The position numbers and the translations under genes are program-made. The notes below the pieces were generated by a model. It saw nothing but the letters and a program-made list of their open reading frames with translations, ran no database searches and was not told the DNA's origin. This document shows, piece by piece, positions 6,633 to 61,141 of a DNA stretch of 64,000 nt. The DNA lies in the NCBI GenBank assembly GCA_022566715.1, contig JADFIH010000001.1:2420-66419 (forward strand), written 5' to 3'. Source of the DNA: Pseudomonadota bacterium. Its GTDB lineage: Bacteria; Pseudomonadota; Alphaproteobacteria; SHVP01. Each line of letters opens with the position of its first letter. Position 1 is the stretch's first letter.

Positions 6633-6921
6633 AATTTTTCTCCCCGGCCGGAAGCGCGCCGCCTTGCGCCCCTGAAGCAAATCAATACGTTAGAGCAAAT
6701 TCTCCGGGTTGATGGACCGCCTTGGGCGGATCAACCGGGAGCGGCTCCGATCGACCCGGATTCGCTCCAACGGCGGCTATTCTAACGCGGAATGAGCGGG
6801 CCGTTGCAAGATGGACTCTGGCCGCCGCCACCCCCATTTGGCCCTGTATCCGACTTTGAATTTGACTTTCGAACCGGCTGTCCTACCCTGGCCTTCGATC
6901 AACACTTAGAATGCTTCCAAT

Positions 6922-9168
6922 ATGACCGCACAAACGACCCAAAAACCGCGGAAAACCGGCGCTCAGCGGCAGGCTGGCGGGGAACGCTCCTTCGCCAAGG
7001 AGGTGAAGCTTCTGCGCCTGGGCGAGGGCGATATCTTCGAGGGCGAGGGCATCCTGGCCGTCACCAAGGCGGCCCTGCAGGCCGGGGTCAGCTATGTGGG
7101 CGGCTATCAGGGATCGCCCGTTTCGCACCTCGTCGACGTGCTGTCCGAGGCCAAGGATATCCTCGACGAATACGGCGTCCACCTGGAGATCTGCGCCAAT
7201 GAAGCGGGCGCCGCCGCCATGCTGGGCGCCTCGGTCAACTACCCGATTCGTGGCCTGGTGACGTGGAAATCCATCGTCGGCACGAATGTCGCCGCCGACG
7301 CGTTGTCCAGCTTGGCCTCGACCGGCGTCAAGGGCGGCGCCATGGTGGTCATCGGCGAGGATTACGGCGAGGGCGCCAGCATCATTCAGGAGCGCAGCCA
7401 CGCCTATGCGCTGAAATCACAAATTTGGCTGCTCGACCCCCGGCCCAATCTCACATCGATCACCAACATGGTGGAAAAGGGCTTCGAGCTGTCCGAGGCG
7501 ACCAACACGCCCGTCATGTTGGAACTGCGTATCCTCGCCTGCCACGTTCAGGGGCGCTTCGTCTGTAAGGATAACGCGACGCCTAAATATTCGCGCAACA
7601 ACCCGATCAAAATTCCTGAGTTCAATGTGGAGCGGATCGCCCTGCCGCCGTTCACCTACCAGCAGGAGCGCGACAAGGTTACGCGCCGGTTGCCCGCCGC
7701 GATTCAGTTCGTCAAGGACAACAAGCTGAACGAGATGTTCCCGGGCGACATGGAGGAGGTCGGCATCATCGTCCAGGGCGGCCTCTATAACACGCTCATC
7801 CGCTCGCTGGGCCGCCTGGGGCTCGCCGATCTGAACGGGAATTCGCGGCTGCCCCTCTATGTCCTCAACGTGACGCATCCGCTCATCGACGACGAGATCG
7901 TCGAGTTCTGCGCCGGCAAATCCCACGTTCTCATGGTCGAGGAGGGGACGCCCGAATACATCGAGCAGGCCATCCATGTGGCGCTGCGCAAGGCGGACGT
8001 GAACACCAAGGTGAGCGGCAAGGATGTCTTGCCCGCCGCCGGCCAGTACACCAACGACGTGATGCTCACGGGCGTCGCCGAGTTCATCCGCAAGGCGGAA
8101 CCTCGCGGCGCCGACCTGAGCGCGGTTTCGCGGGCGCTTGCGGATACGGCGGCCCTGAAGCAGCAAGCGGCGGACCTGCTGGGTGGCACGGTGCCCGGAC
8201 GCCCCCCAACCTTTTGCACCGGCTGCCCCGAGCGGCCCGTGTTCACCGCAATCAAATTGCTGGAGCGCGAGCTGGGACCGACGCACATCAGCGCCGACAT
8301 CGGCTGCCACACCTTCGCCGCGTTGCCGCCCTTCGGCTTGGGCAACACCGTGCTGGGCTACGGCGCGGGACTTGCGAGCTCGACCGGCATCGCCCCCAAT
8401 TTCGAAAAGCGCACGATCAGCATCATGGGCGACGGCGGATTCTGGCACGGTGGTCTGACGAGCGGTGTGGCGAGCGCCGCCTTCAACCAGGCCGATTCGG
8501 TGCTGATCGTCATGAAGAACGGTTACACCTCGGCCACGGGATGGCAGTACCTGCCGTCAAGCCCCAAGGATGGCGACATGTCGGACACCCGCATGTCGAT
8601 CGAAAAGACCATCAAGGCACTGGGCATCACCTGGCAGAAGAAGGTCCACACCTACGACTTGGGGAAGATGGTCAAGACCCTGCGGGAGGCGATGACCACC
8701 AGCCGGGCCGGCCTCAAGGTCATCATCGCCGAGGCCGAGTGCCAGCTTGCAAAACAACGCCGCGTGAAGGCCGACCGCACCAAGAAGCTCGCCGCCGGCA
8801 AGCGCGCCGTGCGGCCGCGCTTCGGCATCGATGAGGACGTATGCACCGGCGACCACTCGTGTATCCGGCTGTCGGGCTGCCCATCGCTGACTATAAAGCC
8901 CAATCCCGACCCCTTGCGCACCGACCCGGTCGCGCACATCAAAGAGGATTGCGTGGGCTGCGGCCTTTGCGGCGAGATCGCGCACGCCGCGGCGTTGTGC
9001 CCGTCCTTCTACCAAGCCGACATCGTCTACAATCCGAATTTACTGGAGCGCGCCTTGAGCCGGGCGCGGCGCGCCGTCATCGGCCGCTTTTACAGCCGCG
9101 AGGCCGTGCGCCTGGCCGAGCCCGTGGCCGGTGTCCTCGAGGCCGAGGAGTCGCGGGCCGCCGCATGA
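6922..9168 (+). CDS. iorA: indolepyruvate:ferredoxin oxidoreductase alpha subunit (TPP- and 4Fe-4S-binding)
   Basis: 748 aa with a TPP-binding region (GDGGFWHGG) and a C-terminal ferredoxin-like CxxCxxC cysteine cluster. Stop overlaps the iorB start in an ATGA junction. Confidence 0.85.
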   Translation: MTAQTTQKPRKTGAQRQAGGERSFAKEVKLLRLGEGDIFEGEGILAVTKAALQAGVSYVGGYQGSPVSHLVDVLSEAKDILDEYGVHLEICANEAGAAAMLGASVNYPIRGLVTWKSIVGTNVAADALSSLASTGVKGGAMVVIGEDYGEGASIIQERSHAYALKSQIWLLDPRPNLTSITNMVEKGFELSEATNTPVMLELRILACHVQGRFVCKDNATPKYSRNNPIKIPEFNVERIALPPFTYQQERDKVTRRLPAAIQFVKDNKLNEMFPGDMEEVGIIVQGGLYNTLIRSLGRLGLADLNGNSRLPLYVLNVTHPLIDDEIVEFCAGKSHVLMVEEGTPEYIEQAIHVALRKADVNTKVSGKDVLPAAGQYTNDVMLTGVAEFIRKAEPRGADLSAVSRALADTAALKQQAADLLGGTVPGRPPTFCTGCPERPVFTAIKLLERELGPTHISADIGCHTFAALPPFGLGNTVLGYGAGLASSTGIAPNFEKRTISIMGDGGFWHGGLTSGVASAAFNQADSVLIVMKNGYTSATGWQYLPSSPKDGDMSDTRMSIEKTIKALGITWQKKVHTYDLGKMVKTLREAMTTSRAGLKVIIAEAECQLAKQRRVKADRTKKLAAGKRAVRPRFGIDEDVCTGDHSCIRLSGCPSLTIKPNPDPLRTDPVAHIKEDCVGCGLCGEIAHAAALCPSFYQADIVYNPNLLERALSRARRAVIGRFYSREAVRLAEPVAGVLEAEESRAAA

Positions 9169-56303: not shown

Positions 56304-56858
56304 CTATTCGAAATCGCCGGCCAGCGCTTCACGCGCTTCGGCGGGCAGGACCGCGGTATGGCCATAATTGGGATGGCCGATTCCGACCAGCACCTCGACC
56401 GCGGGATCGCGGAACCCGGCCACCTGCGCGTCGCTGAAGGGGAAATGCAGAAAATGGACGGACGAGGCCTTGCCGTCGCTCCGGGTGCGCTCGACATCGT
56501 CTTCGGGCACGGCGGTGATCGTTTCCTGCCCCACCTTTAAGGTGACCGTGCCCTCGACGCCGCCAAGCCGGCGCAGCTCCCGGCCGCGCCGTTCCGGATC
56601 GGGAATTTCGAACATCAGTGTCGCCACGAGTTCACGCCCCTTCGGCACGAGCGGGTTGTAGGCCGCAAGTTCGCCCTCGACCTGCGCCTCGCCACCCTTT
56701 TCGATGTGAAGCATCTCGTGAATCTGGATCCACATGGTGTCGTAGCTCTCGAAATAGAGGGTGGCGAAGGGACCGACCTCGACCCGGCGTTTTTTCTTGA
56801 TGGCCGACGCTTCGGCGCGCCGCTGTTTGCGGACGTCGGCGTAATCCGCCATCGGCAT
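56304..56858 (-). CDS. DUF3501-family protein
   Basis: Conserved partner of HdrD-like Fe-S proteins and rubrerythrin. Start MPMADYADVRK. Confidence 0.65.
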   Translation of the reverse strand: MPMADYADVRKQRRAEASAIKKKRRVEVGPFATLYFESYDTMWIQIHEMLHIEKGGEAQVEGELAAYNPLVPKGRELVATLMFEIPDPERRGRELRRLGGVEGTVTLKVGQETITAVPEDDVERTRSDGKASSVHFLHFPFSDAQVAGFRDPAVEVLVGIGHPNYGHTAVLPAEAREALAGDFE

Positions 56859-56907
56859 GATGTCGGCGCGAGTGATTTCCCGTTTCAAAGCGCTCACCGT
56901 CCGACCC

Positions 56908-58275
56908 TCACTCCGCCCCACTCTCCGACCCAATCTCCGAAATGCCGTAGGCGCGCGCCATGAGCTCCACCGGGTGGTAGGCGCGGCCACCAGGGACGGG
57001 CTCCTGGCCGAGCTTTTCCACCCCTTGAACGATGTGCTTGGCCGCCAAGGGACATTCGGATGCGAGGTAAGCCTTGCCGGCCTCGCGCGCCTTTTTGGCC
57101 ACGGGCTTGCCCACCTTTATGGCGACCTCGAAATTCTCACGTTTGATGCCCCACGATCCGCCATGCCCGGAGCAGCGTTCGATCACCGAGACATCCGTGT
57201 CGGGCAACAGGCGCAGGAGCTCGGCCGCCTTCGGGCCCATATTCTGGGCCCGCGCGTGGCAGGCGAGATGCACCGCGACGCCCCCCGGTAAGGGCGACAG
57301 GCCGTCCGCCAGCCCCTCGGCGCGGGCAATATCGACAATGTATTCGGTGATGTCCTTCGTCGCCCGCGAAAGCCGTTTGACGTCCGGGTCATCGGGCAGG
57401 ATGAGCGGCCATTCGAACTTCAGCATGAGAGAGCAAGACGGGATCAAGGCGACGATGTCGTAACCCTTCCCGATCCATGGCGCCATTTCCCGGGCGATCC
57501 GGCGGGCCCGGTTCGCAACCGACTCCAAATCGCCCTGCTCAAATTGCGGCATGCCGCAGCATTCTGGATAGACCACCTCGGTTTCGACGCCGTTCTTGGC
57601 GAGAACCCCCTGAGCCGCAACGCCGATTCCGGGACTGTTGTAATTCGCGAAACACGTCGCGTAGAGCACGGCCTTGCGCGCGGACGCCGGTGCATCGGAC
57701 GCAACCCGCGGCGGCGCCGACTTGCTTCGTCCGGCGAAGGTCTTGCGGTGGAATCGGGGCAGCTCCACGTCGCGGTGAATCCCGGCGATCCCCTCCAGCA
57801 GGGGCCGCGTCAGGCCATTGCCGCGCTTGGAGCCCCAGTTCGCCAGACCCGAAACCTTGCCCGCCAACCGCCCGTTGCGGTCGGTCTTGGCGATCTGCCG
57901 GTCGAAAAAACCGATGCCGTGGGATTTCTTTTCGGCGACCCGGTAGCGCAGCATGAGATGGGGGAAGTCGAGGTTGAACTCGTGCGGCGGCACATAAGGA
58001 CATTTGGTCATGAAGCACATGTCGCACAGGGTGCAGGCATCGACCACCGGAGCAAAGTCCTTGCTGTCCACCGAATCGAGCTCGCCGGTTTCCGAGCCGT
58101 CGATCAAATCGAAGAGGCGCGGGAACGAATCGCATAAGTTGAAACAGCGCCGGCAACCGTGGCAAATGTCGAAAACACGCCGAAGCTCCGCGTCGAGCTT
58201 GCCCGTGTCGGTGAAATCGGGATTGCGCCAATCGATGGGATGGCGTATCGGCGCTTCGGTGCCGCCCTCTTTCAT
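56908..58275 (-). CDS. heterodisulfide-reductase-related (HdrD/GlpC-like) Fe-S protein with two CCG domains
   Basis: Two ferredoxin-like cysteine motifs (CHGCRRCFNLC, CTLCDMCFMTKCP) and CCG-domain cysteines (YPECCGMP). Confidence 0.75.
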   Translation of the reverse strand: MKEGGTEAPIRHPIDWRNPDFTDTGKLDAELRRVFDICHGCRRCFNLCDSFPRLFDLIDGSETGELDSVDSKDFAPVVDACTLCDMCFMTKCPYVPPHEFNLDFPHLMLRYRVAEKKSHGIGFFDRQIAKTDRNGRLAGKVSGLANWGSKRGNGLTRPLLEGIAGIHRDVELPRFHRKTFAGRSKSAPPRVASDAPASARKAVLYATCFANYNSPGIGVAAQGVLAKNGVETEVVYPECCGMPQFEQGDLESVANRARRIAREMAPWIGKGYDIVALIPSCSLMLKFEWPLILPDDPDVKRLSRATKDITEYIVDIARAEGLADGLSPLPGGVAVHLACHARAQNMGPKAAELLRLLPDTDVSVIERCSGHGGSWGIKRENFEVAIKVGKPVAKKAREAGKAYLASECPLAAKHIVQGVEKLGQEPVPGGRAYHPVELMARAYGISEIGSESGAE

Positions 58276-58353
58276 GTCGCTGTTCGACCCCGTGCCTGAG
58301 AGGAAAAAGGGGGCCGCGATGAAGCCCCCTTCTCTAAGATCAGTTGAGTGGTT

Positions 58354-58773
58354 CTAGTCGAGCGTGTCCAGCGCCTTCTGGAAACGGCCGGCGTGAGATT
58401 TCTCGGCCTTTGCCAGGGTTTCAAACCAATCGGCGATTTCCTCGAACCCCTCGTCCCGCGCGGTACGCGCCATGCCGGGATACATGTCGGTGTACTCATG
58501 GGTCTCGCCGACGACAGCGGCCTTGAGGTTCAGCTGCGTACTGCCTATGGGCTCTCCCGTCGCCGGGTCGCCGGTTTCCTCGAGATACTCGAGATGCCCA
58601 TGGGCATGGCCGGTCTCACCCTCGGCGGTGGAGCGGAAGACCGCCGACACGTCGTTGTAGCCTTCGACATCCGCCTTTTGGGCGAAATAGAGATAGCGGC
58701 GATTCGCCTGCGACTCACCTGCAAACGCATCCTTCAAATTTTTTTCCGTCTTCGAACCGGCAAGCGATGCCAT
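58354..58773 (-). CDS. rubrerythrin-family diiron protein (no rubredoxin domain)
   Basis: Ferritin-like ExxH pairs (EGETGHAHGH, EYTDMYPGMARTARDEGFEEIADWFETLAKAEKSHAGRF). 139 aa. Confidence 0.8.
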   Translation of the reverse strand: MASLAGSKTEKNLKDAFAGESQANRRYLYFAQKADVEGYNDVSAVFRSTAEGETGHAHGHLEYLEETGDPATGEPIGSTQLNLKAAVVGETHEYTDMYPGMARTARDEGFEEIADWFETLAKAEKSHAGRFQKALDTLD

Positions 58774-58940
58774 CGTTCCTCCTCCTATCTGGATTTTCGA
58801 GTTTCATATGGCGAGATGGCGAGCGCGCCACCCCGTTTTGCCAGCCCTCCAATTGACAATTGACTGGCGAGAAAGCACGCGGCCATGCGCCCCGGCCGCG
58901 ATGATGGATATTTAATGCATCCCACGCAGCGAGTCAATAC

Positions 58941-58958
58941 ATTAGAATCGTTCTAATT
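58941..58958. promoter_or_regulatory. Irr-box / iron control element (ICE)-like palindrome upstream of rubrerythrin operon
   Basis: ATTAGAATCGTTCTAATT matches the ICE consensus TTTAGAA-N3-TTCTAAA at 12 of 14 positions. Lies 170 bp upstream of rubrerythrin and 100 bp downstream of irr. Confidence 0.5.
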
Positions 58959-58990
58959 ACCGACGAGCCAGAAATTTCCGGGAGTCAGCG

Positions 58991-59078
58991 ATCCCCGGTA
59001 ACGCGCCAAATACGACCGGGGACTATCTATCCCCGGTAACGCGCCAAAACGACCGGGGATTATCTATCCCCGGTAACA
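58991..59078. repeat. 2.4 tandem copies of a 37-38-bp hairpin-containing repeat overlapping the irr 3' end
   Basis: Unit ATCCCCGGTAACGCGCCAAA(T)ACGACCGGGGA(C/T)TATCT. Each unit holds the inverted repeat TCCCCGGT/ACCGGGGA. The partial third copy encodes the last 5 codons and stop of irr. Confidence 0.7.
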
Positions 59079-59494
59079 CGTATGACGACGTCGACGCTGG
59101 CGATCCGCTTTCCGGCGGGCGGATCGGGAAGCCGGCCGAGGACGACCGAACTACCGGGAATGTCTTCCAGGCGCCCAATGTCCTCATGATAGAAATGATG
59201 GTGCTCGGTCGTGTTGGTATCGAAATAGGATTTTCCGGGATCGACGACCACTTCATCGAGCAGGCCAACCTTCACGAACTGATGCAGGGTGTTGTAAATG
59301 GTCGCCAGCGAGACACGAACGCCCGCATCGACCGCTTCGGCGTGAAGCGCCTCCGCCGTCACGTGACGATGGGAGTCGCCGAAAAGAAGGCCGGCCAGGG
59401 CGAGCCGCTGCCGCGTGGGCCGCAGACCAACCTGCTTGAGACATCTCAAGGCGCCGCCATCACCGCGTGTGCTTGCACCCTGTGTGTTTGCCAT
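59060..59494 (-). CDS. irr: Fur-family regulator, Irr-like (iron response regulator)
   Basis: Fur winged-helix with the HHH motif (TEHHHFYHE) typical of Irr. Lacks the C-terminal Cys4 structural zinc site of Fur/PerR. Confidence 0.65.
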   Translation of the reverse strand: MANTQGASTRGDGGALRCLKQVGLRPTRQRLALAGLLFGDSHRHVTAEALHAEAVDAGVRVSLATIYNTLHQFVKVGLLDEVVVDPGKSYFDTNTTEHHHFYHEDIGRLEDIPGSSVVLGRLPDPPAGKRIASVDVVIRVTGDR

Positions 59495-59603
59495 GGCTTA
59501 TCTTAGCCTAAAACCCCAGAGTGTAGGGGGTATTTTCGAGGCATCGGCCGCTCCCAAATGGGTCATGCCCCAAAGGTCAAGTCCATGTGGGCCCTGTCCC
59601 GGT

Positions 59604-60998
59604 CTAGTCCCCCGTGGCAATACGTTCCACAAGCTGCCCGACCGTTGGGATGAAACCGTTGGAATAGAACGGATCCGTGGCGAATCGGTAGCCCCCGTGG
59701 CCGGAGAACATCAGTTGGTCTTCGATATCATCGGAGTGGGCGATCGACTGCAAGGTCTTTTGGATGCAAAAGCTGCGCGGATCGGCCTTCCGGCCCGTAC
59801 CGCGGCCCTCGCCCTGCGACCAGTTCGAAAAGCGGCATGAGCTCAGGCAACCCATGCATTCGATCTGGTCGGTTCGGATCTGGTTGGCCTTCTGGGGGGT
59901 GACGAAGATCAGAGTCGAACCGGGCGTGCGCAACGCGTCGGTGAAGCCGGCGGCGATCCAGGCCTCCGCCCGCGCCTTGTCTTGTTCGGCGACGTAAACG
60001 ATCCGCTTTCGGGGTCCGATCGGAAGCTCGGCGTTGTGTTCGCCGACGGGTTGAGTCGTATAGGCGACTTGCCGCCCATTTCGTTCACGCAATTCCTTGA
60101 TGAAGTTGTTGTCGACCGCCGAGGACCAGAACCCCGTCGGACTGTAGTGATTGAGAAAGATATCACCCTCCTTGAGGGTCACGAGTTTCGCCTTCCAAGC
60201 ATCCGAGATGGGGCATTCCTTGGTCAGAAGGGCCCGGGTGCCGAATTGGAAGGCGATGGGCCCCAACTCCTTGTTGTCGAACCAGTCCTGCCACTCGCGC
60301 AGATACCAGACCCCACCCGCCATGATGATGGGCGTTTCGCCGAGACCGTATTCCCGCATCTTGTTACGAAGCTCGACGACCCGTGGAAAGGGATCTTCGG
60401 GTACTTCGGGGTCTTCGCTGTTCGACAGGCCGTTGTGGCCGCCGGCCAGCCAAGGATCCTCGTAGACCACCCCGCCGAGCATGTCGGAGAACTTGTGATA
60501 GGCGCGTTTCCATAGGGCACGAAAGGCGCGCGAGGACGACACGATGGGATAATAGGATATGCCAAAGTTGGCCGCGATCTGGGCGATGCGGTAAGGCATA
60601 CCGGCGCCGCAGGTGACACCGTTGATCAGACCCTTGGCCCCTTCGAGCACGCCATTGAGCACGCGCTCCGCGGCCCCCATTTCCCACAGAACGTTTATGT
60701 GAATGGGGCCGCCCCGGGCGAGCTCGTAAGCGGCCTTCGCCTGGGTTATGCCGCCGTCGATCGCATAACGCACGAGTTCCTCGTGACGCTCCCGCCGCGT
60801 GCGGCCACTATAAATCTGCGGAATGACGCGGCCATTGTCGTCATAGGAATCCGCGTTGACGCCGGAGAAGGTGCCGATTCCCCCGGCGGCGGCCCAGGCG
60901 CCGGAGCACTCGCCGTTGGTGATGGCGACGCCCTTGCCCCCTTCGACCAAGGGCAGCACGTCGTGGCCCGACATGCGGATTGAGTTAAGCGCTTTCAA
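59604..60998 (-). CDS. nitronate monooxygenase (NMO / 2-nitropropane dioxygenase family, FMN-dependent, long form)
   Basis: 464 aa TIM-barrel NMO with FMN-binding glycine-rich segments (GVTCGAGMP, IMAGGVW). Confidence 0.75.
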   Translation of the reverse strand: MKALNSIRMSGHDVLPLVEGGKGVAITNGECSGAWAAAGGIGTFSGVNADSYDDNGRVIPQIYSGRTRRERHEELVRYAIDGGITQAKAAYELARGGPIHINVLWEMGAAERVLNGVLEGAKGLINGVTCGAGMPYRIAQIAANFGISYYPIVSSSRAFRALWKRAYHKFSDMLGGVVYEDPWLAGGHNGLSNSEDPEVPEDPFPRVVELRNKMREYGLGETPIIMAGGVWYLREWQDWFDNKELGPIAFQFGTRALLTKECPISDAWKAKLVTLKEGDIFLNHYSPTGFWSSAVDNNFIKELRERNGRQVAYTTQPVGEHNAELPIGPRKRIVYVAEQDKARAEAWIAAGFTDALRTPGSTLIFVTPQKANQIRTDQIECMGCLSSCRFSNWSQGEGRGTGRKADPRSFCIQKTLQSIAHSDDIEDQLMFSGHGGYRFATDPFYSNGFIPTVGQLVERIATGD

Positions 60999-61141
60999 GG
61001 CCCGTCACCATCAAGGAAAAAGCCGAGGCGCCCGGTGCGCCTCCCCCTAATATAGAATGATTCAAGACAAGGAAAAGTGGTCCAGCGGGGATTTTACAAC
61101 CCCCGCTAGTGAAAATCGTTCACCCCACCACTTTCTGATTT

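Follow-up and report, generated by a model that had tools for sequence, protein, structure and literature searches.

Within a 64,000-nucleotide stretch of alphaproteobacterial DNA (GTDB lineage SHVP01; GenBank assembly GCA_022566715.1, contig JADFIH010000001.1, positions 2,420 to 66,419; hereafter the window), a gene encoding the iron response regulator Irr was found upstream of an iron control element (ICE), the predicted Irr operator, which abuts the predicted promoter of an aerobic-type rubrerythrin gene (rbr). The irr gene, the ICE and the rbr promoter with the gene cluster that follows it very probably constitute a self-contained Irr module. Repression of this module by Irr when iron or haem is low is held with distinctly less assurance, as the more probable sign of control. 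Four minus-strand genes with the same orientation were identified among the open reading frames of the window, encoding a Fur-family protein, a rubrerythrin, a CCG-domain Fe-S protein and a DUF3501 protein. The core features are as follows.

59060..59494, minus strand: irr, encoding a 144-amino-acid Fur-superfamily iron response regulator of the IrrA type
58941..58957, no strand assigned: ICE (Irr box) ATTAGAATCGTTCTAAT, the predicted Irr operator, identified by consensus scan, position weight matrix (PWM) and orthologous sites
58932..58937, minus strand: predicted -35 box TTGACT, 3 nucleotides (nt) downstream of the ICE, placed by ICE-anchored alignment
58909..58914, minus strand: predicted -10 box TAAATA, separated by 17 nt from the -35 box and aligned with cATAtA, a sequence conserved in related loci
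58354..58773, minus strand: rbr, encoding a 139-amino-acid aerobic-type rubrerythrin, a diiron four-helix bundle with no rubredoxin domain
56908..58275, minus strand: gene for a CCG-domain Fe-S oxidoreductase (RFO; GlpC/HdrD-like, COG0247), with a PF02754 match
56304..56897, minus strand: DUF3501 gene, encoding 197 amino acids, with a GTG start 10 nt after the RFO stop codon

The irr product was compared with the NCBIfam models, for which the cut-offs are curated equivalog thresholds. Both the IrrA model (200.9 bits; cut-off 150) and the Irr model (180.3 bits; cut-off 170) were passed, and the scores against the rival families PerRB (60; cut-off 250), PerRA (57; cut-off 200) and Fur (47; cut-off 146) were far under their cut-offs. 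The HHH haem-binding motif is present as H98-H99-H100, inside TEHHHFYHE, and was invariant in 69-70 of the 70 syntenic Irr orthologues that were aligned. The protein contains a single cysteine (C18), which is not conserved, so there is no CxxC; the CxxC pair that forms the structural zinc site of Fur and PerR was likewise found in none of the 70 orthologues. The initial annotation of this DNA had called the protein an Irr because it carried the HHH motif and lacked a Cys4 site, and had named a PerR or Fur protein with a conserved Cys4 site as the finding that would overturn this assignment. The family models and the cysteine content confirmed the assignment, and that alternative was checked and is not the case. 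An N-terminal Cys-Pro haem regulatory motif, which is a property of the Bradyrhizobium japonicum subtype only and without which family membership is possible, was absent from the window protein and present in one of the 70 orthologues. Since this motif is missing, the 59060-59494 product is classified, from its sequence, as an Irr of the IrrA type that resembles the proteins of Rhizobium leguminosarum. A search of the PDB by sequence identified no solved Irr structure, the top matches being Fur and PerR.

Related loci were collected by a profile search with the RFO protein, which yielded 80 loci from species-representative genomes of Rhodospirillales, Kiloniellales, Reyranellaceae, Stella, Ferrovibrio, Pelagibius, Sneathiella, Parvibaculum, a Paracoccaceae metagenome-assembled genome and others. 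As determined by tblastn, irr was located immediately upstream of rbr-RFO-DUF3501 in approximately 66 of the 80 loci, spanning several orders, and the gene order rbr-RFO-DUF3501 was kept across them. Conservation of rbr was unusually high, with 85-93% amino acid identity to the window protein in loci L007-L086; the corresponding values in these loci were 54-68% for Irr, 62-73% for RFO and 49-68% for DUF3501.

The ICE in the window is a perfect 7+3+7 palindrome of 17 bp, the next base (58958) being T. It matches the literature consensus TTTAGAA-N3-TTCTAAA at 12 of 14 positions, with both mismatches at the outermost positions, and is the sole site in the 64-kb window that lies within two mismatches of that consensus. 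At this stringency 0.03 sites are expected per window by chance, and any match at all was obtained in three of 100 dinucleotide shuffles. When three mismatches were allowed, five ICE-like sites were detected in the window, compared to 0.29 expected. The mismatches themselves are A at position 1 and T at position 17, the variants found there most often (16 of 65 and 19 of 65 orthologous sites, respectively); these two positions are the least conserved among the orthologous sites.

The same consensus was used to scan the 75 related loci that have an intact rbr 5' end. An ICE with three or fewer mismatches was present within 350 nt upstream of rbr in 65 of them, 47 of these sites being within two mismatches and five being perfect; the remaining 616 kb contained 17 matches. 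A PWM was built from the orthologous ICE sites. The window ICE scored 27.1 bits with this matrix, compared to a training median of 27.7 bits and a best score of 19.7 bits in shuffled windows, and a site of at least 15 bits was found in 66 of 68 loci with an adjacent irr gene and in one of 521 control 300-nt coding windows; these PWM statistics are partly circular, the matrix having been trained on the same loci, and the first scan, with the literature consensus, is independent of them. Among the seven loci that have no adjacent irr gene, L008 and L083 had no site of at least 15 bits, and L007, L008, L083 and L084 had no site within three mismatches of the consensus; a TTGACA promoter was still seen upstream of rbr in L083 and L084. 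The pairing of irr, ICE and rbr is real and is conserved in more than 60 species. Both the palindrome that the initial annotation placed at 58941-58958, with its 12 of 14 match, and the central proposal built on it, that an Irr protein is encoded next to an ICE upstream of rbr, therefore stand: the site is unique in the window and conserved upstream of rbr, and the proposal is well supported by the family models and by the position-fixed site.

Anchoring of all loci on the ICE revealed a common promoter architecture, which consists of the ICE, 3 nt (cTa), TTGAC(a/t), approximately 17 nt and cATAtA. In the window this region reads ATTAGAACGATTCTAAT-gta-TTGACT-17 nt-TAAATA. The gap between the ICE and the TTGAC sequence was 3 nt in 47 loci, 4 nt in 13 loci and 5 nt in six loci. 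Transcription of rbr is predicted to start near 58902, which would give a 5' untranslated region (5'UTR) of approximately 130 nt, and with this predicted start the ICE would cover roughly -56 to -40.

The proteins encoded downstream of this promoter were assigned by domain and structure searches. The rbr product matched PF02915 (1.5e-29), and PF02915 only. It aligned over its full length, and nearly free of gaps, with the rubrerythrin of Burkholderia pseudomallei (PDB entries 9onm and 4di0; E-value approximately 7e-72), and sulerythrin was also among its best PDB relatives. For the RFO protein, the GlpC models scored under their cut-offs. The DUF3501 product matched PF12007 (4.6e-59), and its length of 197 amino acids was also obtained in the gene call of a related contig (L002); its sole PDB relative is 3fjv, which is described as an 'uncharacterized novel protein'. 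Two hairpins bear on how these genes are transcribed.

58304..58334, minus strand: intrinsic-terminator-like hairpin, GGGGGC-loop-GCCCCC followed by TTTTT, between the rbr stop codon and the RFO start codon
56268..56292, minus strand: terminator-like hairpin GCGCCGGGTCGGCGC followed by GCTAGTTTTT, which closes the cluster after DUF3501

The hairpin that follows rbr folded with an energy of -28.7 kcal/mol (z score -2.09) and ends only approximately 28 nt before the RFO start. Strong hairpins with T-rich tails were present in the rbr-RFO gap of at least 33 of 79 related loci. The window hairpin is probably an attenuator or a 3' stabiliser. Because it lies after rbr and so close to the RFO start, RFO and DUF3501 would most likely be expressed by partial read-through, with Rbr made in excess. 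The initial annotation had treated the three genes as one operon. The 10-nt gap between RFO and DUF3501, in which there is no promoter-like site, and the terminator after DUF3501 agree with that description; the terminator-like hairpin between rbr and RFO qualifies it. Control by the ICE promoter is consequently graded by gene: it is well supported for rbr, and we infer it, together with co-transcription with rbr, for RFO and DUF3501.

The following mechanism is proposed. A near-consensus sigma-70 promoter 3 bp downstream of the ICE would drive expression of rbr and, by read-through of the hairpin that follows it, of RFO and DUF3501 too. When haem or iron is low, an apo-Irr dimer would occupy about -56 to -40 and, with the flanking contacts that are usual for the Fur family, would block access of sigma region 4 and of the C-terminal domain of the RNA polymerase alpha subunit to the -35/UP region, resulting in repression. 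When haem increases, or under oxidative stress, Irr would lose its affinity for DNA or be degraded, and its release would permit the iron-rich, peroxide-scavenging system to be made. In proteins of the R. leguminosarum type, apo-Irr binds the ICE and the binding of haem at HXH abolishes DNA binding (PMC7762939). Repression is favoured because of the precedent of ccpA in Rhodobacter sphaeroides, the conservation of -35 and -10 boxes that are close to the consensus, and the separation of the operator from the -35 box by 3 bp; it is argued that boxes of this strength and conservation make the promoter intrinsically active, and thus one that is repressed rather than activated.

Several observations weigh against repression, and some of them favour a model in which the same parts operate with the opposite sign, such that Irr bound at approximately -48 would activate rbr, in a class I- or class II-like manner, when haem or iron is low. 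Unlike in the classical repressed mbfA promoters of B. japonicum and R. sphaeroides, where it is found over the -10 box or start site, the ICE is in its entirety upstream of the -35 box, with its centre at approximately -48. The sign of Irr control depends on the position of the ICE, and direct, position-dependent activation by Irr from upstream sites has been described as common (PMC7762939). In Pelagibacter, rbr is a predicted Irr target and was 1.57-fold up under iron limitation (PMC2864753), which is weak evidence in the same direction. The effects of Irr in R. sphaeroides are weak and, in the accessible text of that study, most of the genes that were affected by deletion of irr behaved as activated (PMC3413700). 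Induction of rbr could also be useful in these conditions, since iron limitation itself leads to oxidative stress, with the loss of haem and Fe-S peroxidases. Activation stays in contention, but is considered rather unlikely. Promoters that depend on an activator do not usually have -35 and -10 boxes so close to the consensus and so strongly conserved, Irr and sigma region 4 would hardly fit side by side with a gap of 3 bp, and weak repression by Irr was measured at R. sphaeroides ccpA, which has the closest tested geometry (PMC3413700). Furthermore, Irr usually serves to spare iron, and production of a diiron and multi-Fe-S system under iron scarcity contradicts this logic. Repression by Irr in low iron or haem remains the preferred model, with four further points to be set against it: the promoter boxes and start site of rbr are predicted, the circularity of the PWM statistics has been mentioned, the canonical hairpin after rbr may uncouple RFO and DUF3501 from the ICE promoter, and no experimental test of Irr on any aerobic-type rbr cluster was found in the literature that was searchable.

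Two other explanations dispense with the pairing of Irr and ICE altogether. The palindrome could have been kept for another regulator (PerR, Fur or an OxyR-like protein) or as an AT-rich UP element, with irr acting elsewhere. It is consistent with this possibility that the AT-rich sequence is located exactly at the position of an UP element (-40 to -60), that the role of the ICE as an operator is predicted, and that three to five of the seven loci without an adjacent irr gene keep the site. Such loci may, however, encode irr elsewhere in the genome, and the remaining evidence makes the explanation very unlikely: the site agrees with the experimentally defined ICE even at its degenerate positions (R4, Y8, R10 and Y14) and does not match Fur or PerR boxes, it co-occurs with an adjacent irr gene in 66 of 68 loci, and the conservation of its TTAGAA and TTCTAA half-sites is position-specific and does not reflect general AT-richness. 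The second explanation, that the regulator is a PerR or Fur paralogue and the ICE match a chance palindrome, might be suggested by the fact that the PerR models are the nearest non-Irr families and that peroxide-defence genes such as those downstream are typical of PerR control. It is effectively refuted by the PerR and Fur scores, which are far under their cut-offs while both Irr models are passed, by the absence of CxxC from all 70 orthologues, and by the presence in 65 of 75 loci of a site expected 0.03 times per window by chance.

Comparison with known systems placed the window cluster among several precedents. PerR regulons in Firmicutes and anaerobes, in which a Fur-family repressor is encoded beside, or controls, rubrerythrin- or peroxidase-type genes for peroxide defence, have a logic similar to that proposed here. 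PerR has a Cys4 zinc site, senses peroxide by metal-catalysed oxidation of histidine and recognises a different box; the window Irr, in contrast, fails the PerR models and does not have those cysteines. In B. japonicum, Irr acts on blr7895 (mbfA) and bfr through the same regulator family and the same operator motif as in the window. The mbfA gene is repressed by Irr in low iron, and its product has a rubrerythrin/erythrin (PF02915) domain that is shared by the window rbr product. MbfA is, however, a membrane-bound ferritin-like iron exporter with a VIT1 domain, whereas the window Rbr is a soluble, peroxidase-type protein, and B. japonicum Irr has the N-terminal haem regulatory motif that the window Irr lacks. 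The B. japonicum ICE overlaps the transcription start, as cited in the accessible text of PMC3413700, whereas the window ICE abuts the -35 box.

The closest tested arrangement is that of Irr and ccpA in R. sphaeroides (Peuser et al. 2012, PMC3413700), where the Irr box precedes the transcription start of a peroxidase gene by approximately 40 nt, similar to the position in the window. Irr bound this site in vitro with a dissociation constant of approximately 0.9 uM, and expression of ccpA was approximately 2-fold higher in an irr mutant under iron limitation, which is weak repression (PMC3413700). The ccpA gene codes for a dihaem cytochrome c peroxidase and is not next to irr, and its regulation was tested; in the window the target is a rubrerythrin, irr is adjacent and the regulation is predicted from sequence.

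The initial annotation had regarded Irr control of an Rbr-HdrD-DUF3501 operon as undescribed. This claim did not hold, since both halves of the association have been reported. In the accessible text of Rodionov et al. (2006; PMC1698941), minimal Irr regulons with a rubrerythrin-like gene (or ccpA) were predicted in Rhodospirillum, Magnetospirillum and Pelagibacter; the Irr-rubrerythrin link is thus a 20-year-old computational prediction. The regulons in Rhodospirillum rubrum, Magnetospirillum spp. and Pelagibacter ubique consist of one or two ICE sites per genome with a stand-alone rubrerythrin-like or ccpA target, which resembles the situation in the window, and the ICE consensus TTTRGAAYNRTTCYAAA is common to those regulons and the window. 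The window differs in its source, another, uncultured alphaproteobacterium, and the accessible text does not state the ICE-3 nt-(-35) geometry, the adjacency of irr and rbr in approximately 66 of 80 genomes or the hairpin after rbr. The aerobic-type Rbr-RFO-DUF3501 cluster was in turn defined by Cardenas et al. (2016; PMC5114695), in 185 genomes. The window cluster is like theirs in having an Rbr without a rubredoxin domain, an RFO with a CCG domain and DUF3501 (PF12007), in the same order; that paper mentions no Irr or other regulator, whereas in the window and in related Alphaproteobacteria irr and the ICE precede the cluster.

Several other features surround the core of the locus.

58971..59080, minus strand: tandem repeat of 2.5 copies of a 37-38-nt unit (repeat family D1; inverted repeats I1 and I19)
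58878..58900, minus strand: GC-rich hairpin at the start of the predicted 5'UTR, flagged as terminator-like and folded
58851..58864, no strand assigned: AATTGAC-AATTGAC tandem inside the predicted 5'UTR, lineage-specific
59604-60998: NMO-family (nitronate monooxygenase-like) gene, directly upstream of irr

The tandem repeat separates irr from the ICE. Each unit consists of ACCGGGGAT, 5 nt and ATCCCCGGT followed by a T-rich tail, and forms a 9-bp GC hairpin; the 3' end of irr, comprising its final five codons and TAA stop, is contained in the first copy. The RNA of the region folded with an energy of -56.4 kcal/mol (z score -2.85). Copy number varies among near-identical metagenome contigs, with one copy fewer in L001 and L004, where the Irr protein is identical, and no further copies of the 37-38-nt unit were found elsewhere in the window. 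The hairpins at 58971-59080 probably terminate transcription of irr and would therefore insulate the rbr promoter.

On the other side of the promoter, the fold of the whole 5'UTR did not indicate a structured element (z score only -1.33, not significant), and an Rfam search of 58300-59700 gave no match at an E-value of 1 or less. The AATTGAC tandem, which on the gene strand reads GTCAATTGTCAATTG, had been placed near the likely -35 box in the initial annotation. It is present at 58851-58864, but this position is inside the predicted 5'UTR, approximately 40-50 nt downstream of the predicted transcription start, and the conserved -35 box is at 58937-58932. In the 110 nt preceding rbr, none of 75 related loci contained CAATTG or TCAATTG, and an exact or near match is no rarity by chance, one with two or fewer mismatches being found in 15 of 100 shuffles. 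The tandem was rejected both as a -35 box and as a second operator: a TTGACA box would have to be on the opposite strand, the conserved promoter is situated upstream of the tandem, and none of the 75 loci has an equivalent. The tandem probably does not belong to the control region.

Two lower-scoring ICE-like sites in the window were also considered as operators. The second-best site by PWM, CTTAGAATGCTTCCAAT at 6905-6921 (19.3 bits), extends to the base before the ATG of a gene for an IorA-like 2-oxoacid:ferredoxin oxidoreductase (6922-9168), and ior is an ICE-preceded operon of B. japonicum in the accessible text of Rodionov et al. (PMC1698941). It was rejected as an ior operator: only one of 75 upstream regions of metagenomic homologues reached 15 bits and, because the site is not conserved there, it is probably due to chance or lineage-specific. 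The other site, TATAGAATGATTCAAGA at 61051-61067 (16.5 bits), follows the stop codon of pnp and precedes the pnp terminator hairpin, on the upstream side of the NMO-family gene. This position before the pnp terminator and a score below the shuffle maximum led to its rejection, and since it does not reach the best score in shuffled sequence it is probably a chance match.

In 13 of 68 related loci (L013, L016, L021, L025, L039, L040, L044, L046, L055, L060, L071, L072 and L079) a weak ICE-like site of 15-23 bits was detected approximately 100-200 nt upstream of irr itself. This result suggests that Irr may be autoregulated in a minority of lineages; in the window, the region upstream of irr contained no site of 10 bits or more by PWM. 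Upstream of the four-gene set, the window carries the NMO-family gene, pnp and rpsO. As determined by tblastn, the NMO gene is also located upstream of irr in approximately 27 of 80 related loci, and the conserved neighbourhood may therefore extend one gene further.

To our knowledge, Irr has been regarded as confined to Alphaproteobacteria. A complete irr-ICE-rbr-RFO-DUF3501 cassette was, however, found in the gammaproteobacterial isolate Arhodomonas sp. SL1 (L065, 2950-5950), the Irr protein of which scored 168.8 bits against the IrrA cut-off of 150. The presence of the cassette in this isolate points to joint horizontal transfer of regulator, operator and target, with contamination or misassembly as a possible source.

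The irr-ICE-rbr(-RFO-DUF3501) arrangement could represent an ancestral form of Irr control, in which Irr served as a local, PerR-like regulator of peroxide defence and acquired its global iron role later in Rhizobiales, and the cassette would then be portable. This proposal is tentative, a possibility and not an expectation; it is consistent with the Arhodomonas cassette, with the ICE-to-(-35) spacing that is invariant across orders, and with the AT-rich ICE at the UP position, where the ICE could double as an UP element.

The locus reveals no new kind of regulator, operator or mechanism and is a solid, ordinary example of its type. What is added here is the breadth of irr-rbr adjacency, the near-invariant 3-nt spacing between the operator and the -35 box, the attenuator-like hairpin after rbr and the occurrence of the whole cassette in a gammaproteobacterial isolate. 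With one regulator, one operator and one promoter, the locus could settle how Irr acts outside Rhizobiales, both in the sign of its control and in whether haem or peroxide is the signal, and could show how cells deploy the Rbr-RFO-DUF3501 system, which is widespread but uncharacterised biochemically.

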